Shown here in pieces: positions 14,380 to 23,769 of a stretch of 64,000 bases of DNA; the stretch's first letter is position 1, and each line of letters begins with the position of its first letter. Under the pieces are notes generated by a model that was not told the origin of the DNA, made no database searches, and worked only from the letters and a program-made list of their open reading frames with translations. Source of the DNA: a virus (lineage: Duplodnaviria > Heunggongvirae > Uroviricota > Caudoviricetes); IMG/VR virus record IMGVR_UViG_2724679237_000005, positions 1 through 64,000 of that record, one strand, 5' to 3'. A program made the translations under genes and the position numbers.

Positions 14380-14404
14380 GAAAACAAATTGTTTTAGGTA
14401 CTGT
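14380..14404 (-). promoter_or_regulatory. truncated A-type motif marking the left junction of the chromosomal-type insert
   Basis: aaggcagaaaacaaattgtt matches the copy at 10855-10875. The sequence then diverges and no -10 element follows. Confidence 0.45.
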
Positions 14405-14430
14405 GTAAATCAGAAGGGATTGTGTCTATA

Positions 14431-14459
14431 TGAAAATGCCCGGCGTGTTGCCGGGCATT
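14431..14459 (-). terminator. metG rho-independent terminator
   Basis: aatgcccggc-gtgtt-gccgggcatt with TTTTCA on the minus strand, 20 nt after the stop codon. Confidence 0.85.
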
Positions 14460-14478
14460 GCGAAGAGAGGTTGTTTAA

Positions 14479-16512
14479 TTACTTAACCTGGTGACCAGGT
14501 TTAGCACCAGCATCCGGGCTTAACAGGAAGATATCTTTCCCGCCGGGGCCAGCAGCCATCACCATGCCTTCAGAGATACCGAAGCGCATTTTACGCGGAG
14601 CCAGGTTAGCCACCATAATGGTGTGACGACCAATCAGTGCCTGTGGATCTGGATAAGCGGAACGGATGCCTGAGAAGACATTACGCTTTTCACCACCGAG
14701 ATCCAGCGTCAGGCGAAGCAGTTTGTCAGAACCTTCGACAAACTCCGCGTTTTCAATCAGCGCCACACGCAGGTCAACTTTGGCGAAGTCGTCAAAGGTG
14801 ATGGTTTCCTGAATCGGGTCGTCAGCCAGTGGGCCAGTTACCGGTGCAGCTGTGGCTTTCACTTCTTCTTTGGATGCTTCCACCAGTGCTTCCACCTGTT
14901 TCATATCGATACGGTTATACAGTGCCTTGAACGGATTCACTTTATGGCCCAGCAGCGGTTGCTGGATACCATCCCAGGTCAGTTCTGTATTCAGGAATGC
15001 TTCTGCACGTTCAGTCAGTTTCGGCAGTACCGGTTTCAGGTACGTCATCAGCACGCGGAACAGGTTAATGCCCATAGAGCAAATCGCCTGCAGATCGGCA
15101 TCGCGTCCTTCCTGCTTCGCCACCACCCACGGAGCCTGTTCATCGACATAGCGGTTAGCCAGATCAGCCAGCGCCATGATTTCACGAATCGCTTTACCAA
15201 ATTCGCGGCTTTCCCATGCTTCACCAATCACTTCAGCGGCATCAGTAAAGGTTTTGTACAGTTGCGGGTCAGCCAGTTCGCCTGCCAGCACACCGTCAAA
15301 ACGCTTATTGATAAAGCCCGCGTTACGGGACGCCAGATTCACCACTTTGTTCACGATATCGGCATTCACGCGCTGAACGAAATCCTCCAGGTTGAGATCG
15401 ATATCATCAATGCGCGAAGAGAGTTTCGCAGTGTAGTAGTAACGCAGGCTGTCAGCGTCAAAATGATTCAGCCAGGTGCTGGCTTTAATAAAGGTGCCGC
15501 GAGACTTGGACATCTTCGCACCGTTCACCGTCACATAGCCATGAACAAACAGGTTGGTCGGCTTGCGGAAGTTGCTGCCTTCCAGCATGGCAGGCCAGAA
15601 CAGGCTGTGGAAGTAAACGATATCTTTACCGATGAAGTGGTACAGCTCGGCGGTGGAATCTTTCTTCCAGTATTCATCGAAGCTTACGCTGTCGCCGCGC
15701 TTATCACACAGATTCTTGAAAGAGCCCATATAGCCAATCGGTGCGTCCAGCCAGACGTAGAAATATTTACCCGGCGCGTTCGGAATTTCAAAACCGAAGT
15801 AAGGTGCATCGCGGGAGATATCCCACTGTTGCAGACCAGATTCAAACCACTCCTGCATTTTGTTTGCCACCTGCTCCTGCAACGCACCGCTGCGGGTCCA
15901 TGCCTGCAACATTTCGCTGAAAGAGGGCAGATCAAAGAAGAAGTGTTCAGAATCACGCATTACCGGCGTAGCGCCAGAAACCACCGATTTCGGTTCGATC
16001 AATTCAGTCGGGCTATATGTTGCGCCGCAGACTTCACAGTTATCGCCATATTGATCAGGTGCTTTACATTTCGGGCAGGTGCCTTTCACAAAACGGTCCG
16101 GCAGGAACATGCCTTTTTCCGGGTCGTACAACTGAGAGATAGTGCGGTTTTTAATAAAACCGTTCTCTTTCAGGCGAGTATAGATAAGCTCAGACAACTG
16201 ACGGTTCTCTTCGCTGTGCGTCGAGTGATAGTTGTCATAGCTGATGTTAAAGCCTGCGAAATCAGTCTGGTGTTCCTGACTCATTTCGCCAATCATCTGC
16301 TCCGGTGTGATACCAAGTTGCTGTGCTTTCAGCATGATCGGCGTGCCGTGGGCATCGTCGGCACAGATGAAATTAACCTCGTGGCCGCGCATTCGTTGGT
16401 AACGAACCCAGACATCAGCCTGGATGTGCTCCAGCATATGGCCGAGGTGGATTGAGCCGTTAGCGTACGGCAGCGCGCACGTCACCAGAATTTTCTTCGC
16501 GACTTGGGTCAT
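14479..16512 (-). CDS. metG: methionine--tRNA ligase
   Basis: 677 aa from [25 protein letters not shown]. Carries the HLGH (HIGH-class) and KMSKS motifs, CPKC/CEVC zinc knuckles and a C-terminal Trbp111-like domain. It differs at only a handful of positions from E. coli MetG as I remember it. Confidence 0.97.
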
Positions 16513-16669
16513 AGTAGGCATTACTTCTTTGTAGTGAAAAGGGGCTTGATAGTAACAAAATGGCCTTATGTCTGCCATGTGATAACAGCATTTCTCATAA
16601 ATGATTAAATGTCGTAGCTGGAGTACACTACAAGGCGACAATTGCGCAAATTAAAATAAAGGAGACGGG

Positions 16670-17770
16670 ATGAGCGAGTCCAAATCGCCGGATGCCCTGA
16701 GAGCAATGGTAGCCGGTACGCTGGCTAATTTTCAGCACCCAACCCTGAAACACAACCTGACTACGCTTAAAGCGTTACACCATGTTGCGTTGATGGATGA
16801 CACACTGCATGTCGAACTAATCATGCCTTTCGTGTGGAATAAGCCTTTTGAAGACCTGAAAGAGCAATGTAGTGGTGATCTGCTCCGTATCACTGGCGCA
16901 AAGGCTATTGACTGGAAGCTGTCGTACAACATTGCCACGCTTAAGCGCGTCAAAAACCAACCAGGCATTAATGGCGTTAAGAATATTATCGCCGTAAGCT
17001 CAGGCAAGGGCGGTGTAGGCAAATCGTCCACAGCAGTAAACTTGGCACTGGCGTTGGCTGCTGAAGGTGCGAAAGTTGGTATTTTGGATGCCGATATCTA
17101 CGGTCCATCAATTCCAACCATGCTGGGTGCGGAAAACCAACGTCCAACCTCACCGGACGGTACTCACATGGCACCTATCATGTCTCATGGCCTGGCAACC
17201 AACTCTATTGGTTATCTGGTCACCGACGACAATGCAATGGTGTGGCGTGGACCGATGGCTAGCAAGGCGCTGATGCAGATGTTGCAGGAAACACTGTGGC
17301 CTGATCTGGACTATCTCGTTCTCGATATGCCGCCGGGCACTGGTGATATTCAATTGACGCTGGCGCAGAACATTCCTGTAACTGGTGCGGTTGTGGTAAC
17401 TACGCCGCAAGACATCGCGCTGATCGATGCGAAGAAAGGCATTGTGATGTTCGAAAAAGTCGAAGTGCCGGTACTGGGTATCGTCGAAAACATGAGTGTG
17501 CATATTTGCAGTAACTGCGGTCATCACGAGCCAATTTTTGGCACCGGTGGCGCACAGAAGCTGGCCGAGAAATACAACACGCAGTTATTAGGCCAAATGC
17601 CACTTCATATCTCTCTTCGTGAAGATCTTGATAACGGAACACCAACCGTTATTAGTCGTCCAGATAGCGAATTTACGGCTATTTATCGTGACCTCGCAGA
17701 TCGCGTTGCTGCCCAAATGTATTGGCAAGGCGAAGTAATACCTGGCGAAATCGCATTCCGCGCAGTGTGA
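16670..17770 (+). CDS. apbC: Fe-S cluster carrier ATPase ApbC/Mrp
   Basis: 366 aa, divergent from metG as in enterobacterial chromosomes. Deviant Walker A SSGKGGVGKSS and a CSNCGH motif. Closely resembles E. coli Mrp except at the N-terminus. Confidence 0.95.
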   Translation: MSESKSPDALRAMVAGTLANFQHPTLKHNLTTLKALHHVALMDDTLHVELIMPFVWNKPFEDLKEQCSGDLLRITGAKAIDWKLSYNIATLKRVKNQPGINGVKNIIAVSSGKGGVGKSSTAVNLALALAAEGAKVGILDADIYGPSIPTMLGAENQRPTSPDGTHMAPIMSHGLATNSIGYLVTDDNAMVWRGPMASKALMQMLQETLWPDLDYLVLDMPPGTGDIQLTLAQNIPVTGAVVVTTPQDIALIDAKKGIVMFEKVEVPVLGIVENMSVHICSNCGHHEPIFGTGGAQKLAEKYNTQLLGQMPLHISLREDLDNGTPTVISRPDSEFTAIYRDLADRVAAQMYWQGEVIPGEIAFRAV

Positions 17771-22917: not shown

Positions 22918-23091
22918 TGTTGTATCCGGTATTGAATAATCATCTCATAAAAACCATGTAGCCTGTGTGTGATATCTATATCCCAATGAAACTGGTAAAA
23001 TAAAGTATAGCAGTTCAAGATTCCTTGCGCCACCTGAATTTTCTACAGATAATGCAAAACACATAGCAGTAAAACCTTTCGTTTATAAATT

Positions 23092-23391
23092 TTATTTTTT
23101 CCTATAAACATATAGTTCTCCATGCGCTTTCTTTCTGTCTCGGTGTATTCCCATTTCTTTTTCTATTCGTATCGTAGCTTTACGTAACTCTTTTGATGTG
23201 CTAACATCTTTGGCTGCAATGTTTTTTGGCACCGCCTGCTTCATGCAGCGGCGTATTTGTTCTCTAACATATATTCGTTGGTCTACCTGTCCTTCCTGTC
23301 GATAATCCATCAGTACTTCCTGCCAGCGAACAGCAGCCCTGCGCCATAGTCCTCTTTGCTCAAGATCTTCGGCCTTCTTGTCTCTAACCAT
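23092..23391 (-). CDS. PerC-like small regulator
   Basis: ATG at 23391 gives MVRDKKAEDLEQRGLWRRAAVRWQEVL, which resembles the PerC/Pch family N-terminal signature as I recall it. 99 aa, basic. Confidence 0.45.
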   Translation of the reverse strand: MVRDKKAEDLEQRGLWRRAAVRWQEVLMDYRQEGQVDQRIYVREQIRRCMKQAVPKNIAAKDVSTSKELRKATIRIEKEMGIHRDRKKAHGELYVYRKK

Positions 23392-23650
23392 TTCCCCTCC
23401 AAACAAACGTATGCTACAGATTAACTACCTAAAAATTGAGTTTAACACTAACTCATGTAATTAATACTAATGCAAGAAAATATTCACTAATATTTTTATC
23501 TTTTAGTTATAAACTAAATTTACATGTGGCTGTTTTGCAAAATGTAGACTTCCTATATTTTTTATGAAATGATTAGGAAAATAAATTTATTTTATAGCCT
23601 TAACACTATGGTCAATACATTTCTTAACACCCAATGCCATCACGAATGAA

Positions 23651-23707
23651 CTAAGGAAAAGCGGAATGGCCTTTGACGTTAAAATGCTCTAACTGGAGGT
23701 TGTTCAT
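23651..23707 (-). pseudogene. 18-codon stub of a backbone gene (right junction of the insert)
   Basis: It has the backbone start context catgtgttttt(c) and a B-type operator immediately upstream (23752-23769). The ORF (MNNLQLEHFNVKGHSAFP*) stops after 18 codons, where AT-rich foreign DNA begins. Confidence 0.35.
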
Positions 23708-23751
23708 GTGTTTTTCTCTTATCGTTTAGTTACTACATTCTTACACAAACC

Positions 23752-23769
23752 AAGTAAGTAATTACCTAT
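23752..23769. promoter_or_regulatory. B-type palindromic operator-like motif
   Basis: aagtaagtaattacctat. Confidence 0.5.

Follow-up and report, generated by a model that had tools for sequence, protein, structure and literature searches.

The stretch analyzed here (the window) comprises 64,000 nucleotides, positions 1 to 64,000 of IMG/VR virus record IMGVR_UViG_2724679237_000005, and the region of interest is about 9.2 kb of accessory genes between the DUF5983/DUF1380 genes and a DUF4942 gene. The region carries a methionyl-tRNA synthetase gene (metG) divergent from apbC, a remnant of a humD gene and an island encoding a FdeC-like adhesin with two regulators. It had been described in a sequence-only reading as a single block of chromosomal-type DNA captured by a phage-plasmid in the manner of specialized transduction. 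With high confidence we read the window instead as part of an SSU5-type phage-plasmid of the Escherichia lineage that carries two independent cargo modules, an old metG-apbC module and an adhesin island.

Genes of the accessory region and their backbone

Both genes of the divergent metG-apbC pair are intact, as the open reading frame (ORF) translations had indicated and the equivalog scores bore out. MetG scored 1018 bits against NF001100 (cut-off 587) over residues 4-677, making it full length, and its C-terminal tRNA-binding domain scored 163 bits against TIGR00399 (cut-off 117). The class I and zinc-knuckle motifs were all present (HLGH at residue 22, KMSKS at 333, CPKC at 146 and CEVC at 159). 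The protein matches the E. coli MetRS structures 1F4L and 1QQT and is identical to K-12 MetG at 670 of 677 residues (99.0%). The differences from K-12 are conservative and mostly represent states also found in other Escherichia species, and an inhibitor-resistant MetRS variant was rejected on this ground. I442, also present in E. albertii, is the only position separating the three compared MetG copies from K-12 and most other species. The plasmid MetRS thus appears to be the wild-type Escherichia enzyme, and its aminoacylation activity would be expected from 99% identity to the crystallized E. coli protein together with a dN/dS (ratio of non-synonymous to synonymous substitution rates) of ~0.02. 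No tRNA gene that might pair with the MetRS was found in the window. ApbC was likewise full length, scoring 759 bits against NF008669 (cut-off 348), with the deviant Walker A motif GKGGVGKS at residue 112 and the CxxC cluster-binding motif CSNC at residue 280, and is identical to the K-12 protein at 347 of 366 residues (94.8%). The near-identity to K-12 claimed earlier therefore stood for the proteins but not for the DNA, which is 94.0% identical for metG, 81.7% for apbC and ~74% for the 157 bp between them.

To place the element, positions 8000-30000 were compared by megablast with complete E. coli genomes and phage records. The top plasmid matches were ~108-114 kb in size, with p108_MLI108-3 covering 94% of the query at 95.6% identity, and dozens of further plasmids covered 74% at ~97%. 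The top phage matches (95-97%) were Escherichia phage Cyrano, PhiR41_1 and CMS-2020a, and Salmonella phage SSU5 matched 28% of the query at 82%. Both flanks (8000-14393 and 23653-30000) were ~97% identical to Cyrano and positions 30001-55000, which include recA, nrdAB, sbcCD and dnaE, were collinear with it at 97.2%, confirming that a single backbone lies on both sides of the region. This collinearity, and 67-88% identity to SSU5, place the window among SSU5-supergroup phage-plasmids, in the Escherichia lineage that includes pLF82/Cyrano, pECOH89, pSLy3 and pWPMR2-like elements. All close relatives in complete genomes were plasmids of ~100-120 kb. Cyrano is plasmid pLF82 of the adherent-invasive E. 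coli (AIEC) strain LF82 (OV696614; PMC9928086), for which virion formation and a copy number of ~5.5 per chromosome have been published (PMC9928086), consistent with the multicopy element proposed earlier, and PhiR41_1 was deposited as a phage on K-12.

Cyrano shares metG (CYRAN_100), apbC (CYRAN_99, annotated MinD) and humD (CYRAN_98) with the window, and the junctions and the 157-bp intergenic region are identical, but its humD is intact and seven ea22/eae/eaa/ead-type genes occupy the place of the adhesin island. SSU5 (NC_018843, the supergroup prototype) shares the collinear backbone, the DUF4942 gene (SSU5_095, 88% nucleotide identity), operator-like motifs and the intergenic stretch 23708-23768, but is without metG, apbC, humD and the adhesin and carries unrelated small genes (SSU5_103 to SSU5_096) in the matching stretch.

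The two modules differ greatly in distribution. Of 5,426 complete E. coli genomes, 215 (~4%) contained sequence of the apbC type, at 95-99% identity and always on a plasmid; chromosomes reached only ~82%. In the same genomes metG occupied 219 plasmid places and 5,424 chromosomal places. The chromosomal copy is kept and carriers are therefore merodiploid for an essential aminoacyl-tRNA synthetase, as had been supposed. PLSDB contained 188 plasmids with the apbC-type module, and their hosts were E. coli, E. albertii, E. marmotae and, with a module at ~98% identity, Shigella. The metG-apbC module has identical junctions on ~108-kb plasmids and in phages Cyrano and PhiR41_1, and was not found in SSU5 or Klebsiella relatives. 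The DUF4942 backbone gene occupied 247 plasmid places, and set against the ~215 of the module this indicates that roughly 85-90% of the family retain it. In contrast to the 215 genomes with the module, the adhesin island was found at 92% identity in only 2 of the 5,426 genomes. Another family member, pRHBSTW-00905_2, has a version of the island at 83.6% in the same place, with a slightly different right junction.

Between the two modules lies the humD remnant. Its C-terminal 57 codons are intact and its 5' part contains deletions and a frameshift. The remnant is 98% identical to Cyrano up to position 17994 and 81.5% identical over 18005-18069, and it matches humD of P1, P7 and D6 at 83-86%, which makes it phage-plasmid-type and not chromosomal DNA. 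Cyrano matches positions 14018-17994 and 23653-25513 and nothing between. Two parts can therefore be told apart, one shared with Cyrano (metG, apbC and the 3' end of humD) and one variable, the island. The annotations of related elements are in agreement with these borders.

Alignment with the related phage-plasmids also identified the replaced DNA, which comprises the humD 5' part and CYRAN_97 to CYRAN_91. At the right junction, an ORF had been noted that dies after 18 codons. Its translation, MNNLQLEHFNVKGHSAFP*, is the N-terminus of the Cyrano Ead/Ea22 protein (MSNLQLEHFNVTGHSDFPFKF...), demonstrating that this junction is a true replacement. The breakpoint was identical in the window and p108_MLI108-3 by junction alignment. 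AT-rich DNA does begin at the stump, as had been reported (32.6% GC over 21894-23652 and 45.7% over the whole window). Given the distributions of 215 and 2 genomes and the humD sequence in between, the 9.2 kb cannot be taken as one chromosomal-type block. Together these data indicate that metG-apbC and the adhesin island are unrelated cargo modules with separate histories.

Table 1. Features of the accessory region and its borders (window coordinates)
Feature	Position	Strand	Description and basis
Backbone regulatory region	14331..14393	-	Two AACAAnTTGTT palindromes (14332-14342, 14383-14393); left edge of SSU5-shared DNA
Likely metG terminator	14436..14458	-	Hairpin ATGCCCGGC-GTGTT-GCCGGGCAT, then T-run on minus strand; read from sequence
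metG	14479..16512	-	Methionine--tRNA ligase, 677 aa, intact; NCBIfam NF001100 equivalog
Divergent promoter region	16513..16669	.	157 bp between metG and apbC
apbC (mrp)	16670..17770	+	Iron-sulfur cluster carrier P-loop NTPase, 366 aa, intact; NCBIfam NF008669 equivalog
Predicted bidirectional terminator	17776..17796	.	GC-rich hairpin between convergent apbC and humD; terminator scan
humD/umuD-like pseudogene	17808..18108	-	S24 peptidase; translation compared with 129-aa CYRAN_98
Variable adhesin island	17995..23652	.	5.66 kb; replaces humD 5' part and CYRAN_97 to CYRAN_91
FdeC-like inverse autotransporter adhesin	18258..21893	-	1211 aa; Pfam IAT_beta 4.6e-108, Big_1 x4, Invasin_D3 x7
MarR-family regulator, PapX/SfaX-like	22429..22917	-	162 aa; Pfam MarR 7e-11
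PerC-family transcriptional activator	23092..23406	-	~100 aa; Pfam PF06069 2.3e-14
ead/ea22-like gene stump	23651..23707	-	18 codons; right junction of island
DUF4942 protein gene	23769..25454	-	First intact backbone gene on right; Pfam DUF4942 1.8e-20

History of the metG-apbC module

The two genes of the module differ in their relationship to the chromosome. Distance matrices and neighbor-joining trees placed them differently. In the trees the plasmid metG fell within Escherichia at about a between-species distance (92-94% to all species), and the plasmid apbC formed a long branch outside Escherichia. Synonymous divergence (dS) between the plasmid copies and K-12 was 0.31 for metG and 1.79 for apbC, compared with 0.34 and 0.62 between K-12 and E. 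albertii and 0.74 and 1.19 between K-12 and Citrobacter. This corresponds to an apbC/metG dS ratio of 5.8 for the phage-plasmid copies and ~1.6-1.8 for chromosomal pairs. The tree placement and differing dS values therefore indicate discordant histories for metG and apbC. Divergence of the module among phage-plasmids was about that of the backbone, and within it metG varied more (94.4-97.4% identity) than apbC (96.3-99.5%), the reverse of the chromosomal pattern. K-12-like sites private to one phage-plasmid were clustered, at metG 1173-1231 and apbC 309-390 in Cyrano, metG 1962-2004 in pMLI108 and metG 824-828 in the window. This pattern is no more than suggestive of repeated gene conversion, in short patches, between the plasmid and chromosomal copies of metG, which would be easiest for metG as it is ~94% like the chromosomal copy. 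A broader version of this idea holds that metG exchanges short patches with the chromosome repeatedly, that the family thereby shuttles alleles (including tolerance-conferring ones) among Escherichia and Shigella chromosomes, and that the intergenic region is a phage-plasmid-specific control element setting heterogeneous dosage of MetRS and ApbC; we regard this as speculative and rather unlikely to hold in full.

Of the competing explanations, the one that survives best, although we consider it improbable, is that a single unsampled lineage just outside Escherichia supplied the whole metG-apbC block and that gene-specific rates and amelioration, with no gene conversion, produced the discordance. 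Chromosomal metG does evolve more slowly than apbC, as the K-12 and Citrobacter comparison demonstrates, and GC content at third codon positions (GC3) of apbC is down 10 points (0.62 to 0.51), towards the composition of the element, with metG GC3 barely changed. However, the ratio of 5.8 is far from the chromosomal values, the greater variability of metG than apbC among phage-plasmids reverses the chromosomal order, and the K-12-like sites are clustered in single lineages, all of which argue against this explanation.

The control sequences of the module were also assessed. By blast against the K-12 metG locus, homology was confined to positions 14478-17766, from stop codon to stop codon. When 80 Enterobacteriaceae chromosomal metG-apbC loci were compared, only 47 bp of the intergenic region beside the metG start (16513-16559) matched, leaving ~110 bp that are phage-plasmid-specific, and neither terminator region matched any of the loci. 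The promoter region and terminators, called native in the sequence-only reading, are therefore not native. The likely metG terminator hairpin had no match in K-12 or the 80 loci and is conserved in Cyrano, pMLI108 and pRHBSTW. A bidirectional terminator is the probable role of the hairpin downstream of apbC, which has a T-run on the minus strand and, on the plus strand, an A-run upstream; this hairpin is not in the K-12 mrp flank and is conserved at 98% in the same three elements. The 157-bp intergenic region was 100% identical in the window, Cyrano, pMLI108 and pRHBSTW, whose flanking genes differ by 2-5%. Of the 225 matching E. coli records, 215 had it at 99% identity or more, and 214 genomes had it nearly full length; among the matches listed, the full-length ones were all plasmids and the weaker ones included partial chromosomal matches. 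A region that is nearly invariant and mostly non-chromosomal points to a remodeled, strongly constrained control region. A sigma-70 consensus scan gave no strong match and no promoter within it, and the total count of the scan was below shuffle expectation. RNA folding of the region was no better than for shuffled sequence (z +0.56 and +0.87). No Rfam family reached gathering score in 13500-24500. A LexA box candidate in the intergenic region (CTG-N11-CAG, read by eye) was dropped for wrong spacing.

The coding sequences are also constrained. No frameshift or stop was found in metG or apbC in any copy examined. Among phage-plasmid copies dN/dS was 0.016-0.022 for metG and 0.00-0.013 for apbC, at dS of 0.09-0.16. 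Between the window and pMLI108, apbC dN/dS was 0.013 (22 synonymous and 1 non-synonymous change) with almost no K-12-like sites involved. Values this low, also in comparisons with almost no K-12-like sites, argue for strong purifying selection on both genes while they are carried by the phage-plasmid. We considered whether metG and apbC could instead be functionless passengers that persist by hitch-hiking or by refreshing from the chromosome. Some of the within-family variation does look imported from chromosomal alleles, which would itself bias changes towards synonymous ones, and a few members have lost the module, such as p.CT29-P1 of E. coli (comparison stretch L087, 4900-17000), in which IS1, a helix-turn-helix (HTH) gene, IS3 and a DUF4145 gene stand in its place. 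Against this are the intact reading frames, the apbC comparison almost free of K-12-like sites, the poor substrate for conversion that apbC offers at 82% identity, retention in ~215 of ~247 backbone-bearing plasmids and the nearly invariant promoter region. In addition, apbC is expressed in lysogens (PMC9928086) and a phenotype of phage-plasmid metG has been published, according to a citing paper (PMC12452169). A passenger status is thus very unlikely.

A single recent capture of ~9.2 kb from the current host chromosome, resembling specialized transduction, fared worse still. The protein identities to K-12 and the truncated backbone gene at the right junction are what such an event might leave. 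However, metG differs by 6% and apbC by 18% from every E. coli chromosome, the module and its flanks are spread over more than 200 plasmids from four species and have diverged along with the backbone, and the adhesin island, separated from the module by phage-type humD, follows a wholly different distribution. Furthermore, the genes are not chromosomal neighbors, with metG-apbC at ~2.19 Mb in K-12 and fdeC beside rclC in UM146. Specialized transducing phages of the lambda gal/bio type arise by aberrant excision next to the attachment site and carry host-identical DNA. The window is like them in that host genes replace phage genes via illegitimate recombination, but the element is always a plasmid and its genes are 6-18% diverged from the host. 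From the earlier capture proposal, the uptake of chromosome-derived genes by illegitimate recombination stands; one event, a recent date and the present host as source do not. The presence of the same module in more than 200 plasmids and in phage genomes also excludes a chimeric assembly and a location in the chromosome. A chimera of this kind, or a stretch of chromosome whose backbone is a defective prophage, is the least credible explanation of all. No evidence in its favor was found, the junctions are identical in independent complete plasmids and in the phage records Cyrano, PhiR41_1 and CMS-2020a, the high-identity matches are all on plasmids and both flanks are collinear with Cyrano over >40 kb.

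The preferred history, with two independent modules, would be as follows. The ancestor of this lineage would have acquired a chromosomal divergent metG-apbC pair a single time, long ago, through illegitimate recombination, at breakpoints that now coincide with both stop codons. After capture, new sequence would have taken the place of the terminators and of most of the promoter region. The module would then have been inherited and kept by strong purifying selection, supplying an additional wild-type MetRS and an additional Fe-S carrier, both encoded on a ~5-copy replicon, with the host chromosome keeping its own metG-apbC genes alongside, and the discordance of the two genes would stem from repeated gene conversion, in short patches, between the plasmid and chromosomal copies of metG. 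The adhesin, the PapX/SfaX-like MarR protein and the PerC-like activator would have come in separately, replacing the stretch from the interior of humD to codon 18 of the ead/ea22 gene.

Several observations weigh against this account. ApbC was compared with 185,579 species genomes (one genome per species) and none of the 80 best loci examined exceeded 95% amino acid or 83% nucleotide identity, so no donor species was found and either the donor is unsampled or the capture is old. Part of the excess divergence of apbC could reflect drift to the lower GC of the element rather than another origin. The gene conversion comparison used five phage-plasmid sequences and simple site-pattern counts. In strain LF82, Cyrano metG (CYRAN_100) was below the 5-fold threshold used to call morons (PMC9928086), and metG expression in lysogeny is therefore not supported by that data set. 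The plasmid state of the 64-kb window is taken from its relatives, and the island would serve regulated adhesion by homology only.

Possible consequences of a second MetRS gene

The capture of metG-apbC is already known, as the genes are annotated in hundreds of records and functional work has been published. The module in the window is thus known lineage-wide cargo and not a new capture event. The points added here are modest and comprise the strength of purifying selection, a promoter region that is remodeled and near-invariant, the disagreement between metG and apbC in their histories, along with hints of conversion, and the same adhesin beside humD in P1-like and SSU5-like phage-plasmids.

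Mutations to antibiotic tolerance recur in chromosomal metG, and plasmid-borne second aminoacyl-tRNA synthetases such as MupA and MupB (IleRS) confer drug resistance via divergent, inhibitor-insensitive enzymes. The window metG is like MupA/MupB in being an extra aminoacyl-tRNA synthetase gene on a mobile element in a merodiploid host. It is unlike them in that its MetRS appears to be the wild-type Escherichia enzyme, so any effect would be due to dosage or expression and not to an altered target. The suggestion that a second MetRS copy matters for inhibitor tolerance therefore changes in form. An altered, drug-insensitive target is unlikely, but a link between phage-plasmid metG and antibiotic survival has been published, as reported in PMC12452169. 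That paper cites Tam et al. (2024) for a multi-copy, highly variable metG on a phage-plasmid of multidrug-resistant Shigella sonnei, whose expression leads to a subpopulation predisposed to third-generation cephalosporin resistance (PMC12452169). The S. sonnei elements resemble the window in being of the SSU5 supergroup and carrying a second, variable metG, and the "highly variable" metG fits the metG variation seen among phage-plasmids here. The window differs from them in its extra adhesin island.

About 4% of complete E. coli genomes, along with Shigella, E. albertii and E. marmotae strains, would thus hold a second, selected wild-type MetRS on a multicopy transmissible phage-plasmid, and recognizing the module matters for surveillance and for the interpretation of metG genotypes. 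The metG-bearing element of Tam et al. is presumably pWPMR2. Elements like pWPMR2 occur in S. sonnei and in E. coli CC131, CC23 and CC73 and have been linked to outbreaks of extensively drug-resistant (XDR) shigellosis (bioRxiv 10.1101/2025.09.12.675607). For apbC, transcription of the Cyrano orthologue CYRAN_99 in lysogens exceeded the prophage background 9-fold, and the gene was classed as a moron (PMC9928086); a 2025 paper remarked that such phage-plasmids "acquired" an apbC gene (PMC12429562).

The adhesin island and the left edge

The island adhesin has the architecture of an inverse autotransporter, with an N-terminal PF11924 beta-barrel followed by tandem Big_1 and Invasin_D3 repeats. 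It shares with chromosomal FdeC (EaeH) the barrel, the Big_1/invasin Ig-like repeats and a close N-terminal region of ~780 residues, but it is ~200 aa shorter, has a diverged C-terminal repeat part, is plasmid-borne and is flanked by PapX- and PerC-like regulators. Identity to chromosomal FdeC (UM146) was 65% overall at the protein level and 82-84% at the nucleotide level, and the genomic context differed. Near-identity at the same locus, as expected of an orthologue, was therefore not seen, and the gene appears to be a plasmid-borne paralogue or allele family of fdeC. Plasmids of E. fergusonii and Salmonella carry relatives at 87%. Outside the family, the closest adhesin (91% nucleotide identity) was on the P1-like IncY plasmid p2RM9976 of E. 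albertii, where it adjoins a truncated humD and an IS630-like transposase gene (comparison stretch L086, 3285-8608). Having the adhesin beside humD in both P1-like and SSU5-like phage-plasmids hints at cargo exchange between the two families. No transposase-sized ORF was found in the island of the window; the IS630-like element is present only in the P1-like relative.

The island itself appears to be mosaic. The 3' third of the adhesin gene with the humD remnant (17700-19520) was only 84% identical to p108_MLI108-3 (comparison stretch L001, 10892-12742), the remaining island was 95% identical and the regulator segment 99%. The p108_MLI108-3 adhesin also has ~0.7 kb more Ig-like repeats than that of the window, suggesting that the passenger domain in particular is mosaic. 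For the 1.76-kb segment with both regulators (21894-23652), close relatives in the 5,426 complete E. coli genomes were limited to two other plasmids, p108_MLI108-3 and the UID2309220033 plasmid, at 99.0% identity. The MarR-family protein is ~52% identical to SfaX and PapX and below every NCBIfam equivalog cut-off. PapX, SfaX and FocX are encoded with fimbrial operons and repress flhDC and motility. The island protein is like them in family, in size and in lying beside an adhesin gene, but it accompanies an inverse autotransporter and not chaperone-usher fimbriae. By analogy with PapX, adhesion may be coupled to repression of motility. The PerC-family protein scored 53.9 bits against PF06069 (gathering score 22.6), the gene is annotated as PerC family in p108_MLI108-3 and, by the same kind of analogy, its product may cross-talk with regulation of the locus of enterocyte effacement (LEE). 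The slot between humD and the DUF4942 gene holds a type I restriction-modification system in p.CT29-P1 and is therefore a cargo hot spot. The adhesin island is a rare replacement in this known hot spot, adding virulence-type cargo seldom seen in the phage-plasmid family.

At the left edge, the backbone regulatory region lies upstream of the DUF5983-family gene (14018-14326). Positions 14331-14387 aligned with SSU5 (comparison stretch L003, 9519-9575) at 84% and similarity stopped thereafter, so the edge of the lineage-specific DNA is roughly where it had been placed. The motif repetition reported there is real, as there are two exact occurrences of the 20-nt string AAGGCAGAAAACAAATTGTT, one at 10854-10873 and one at 14374-14393 (0.01 expected by chance). 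However, its second copy is not a scar of insertion, since SSU5, which has no metG, aligns across 14331-14387 and the paired motifs therefore predate the capture. The palindrome AACAAnTTGTT was found nine times in the window (0.10 expected), at 10099, 10863, 11765, 14332, 14383, 26182, 26911, 37131 and 55252 (plus-strand positions), all in one orientation and usually followed by TTCTTAT. When the copies were compared with ORF starts, those at 10099, 14332, 26182 and 26911 lay at most ~30 nt upstream of minus-strand genes. Some copies are also present in SSU5. The motif may serve the early region of the phage-plasmid as an operator or promoter element. The start context described as a signature of the backbone, CATGTGTTTTT, was also enriched, with 14 matches against 2.6 expected.

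Two further observations concern the backbone. The stretch 12940-13600 is ~0.7 kb without a long ORF and has a strong strand skew (GC +0.35 and AT -0.30 over 13001-14000). It contains GGTAATGGC three times (13155, 13268 and 13403; 0.32 expected) and is conserved in SSU5 at 68%. No tandem repeats or iterons were found in this skewed non-coding stretch (12.9-13.6 kb), which could be a non-coding RNA or an array of binding sites. Within the DUF4942 gene, 33 nt (24747-24779) match at 100% an annotated clustered regularly interspaced short palindromic repeats (CRISPR) feature on the chromosome of E. coli AST85 (NZ_AP043644.1), which appears to be a host spacer against the phage-plasmid family of the window.

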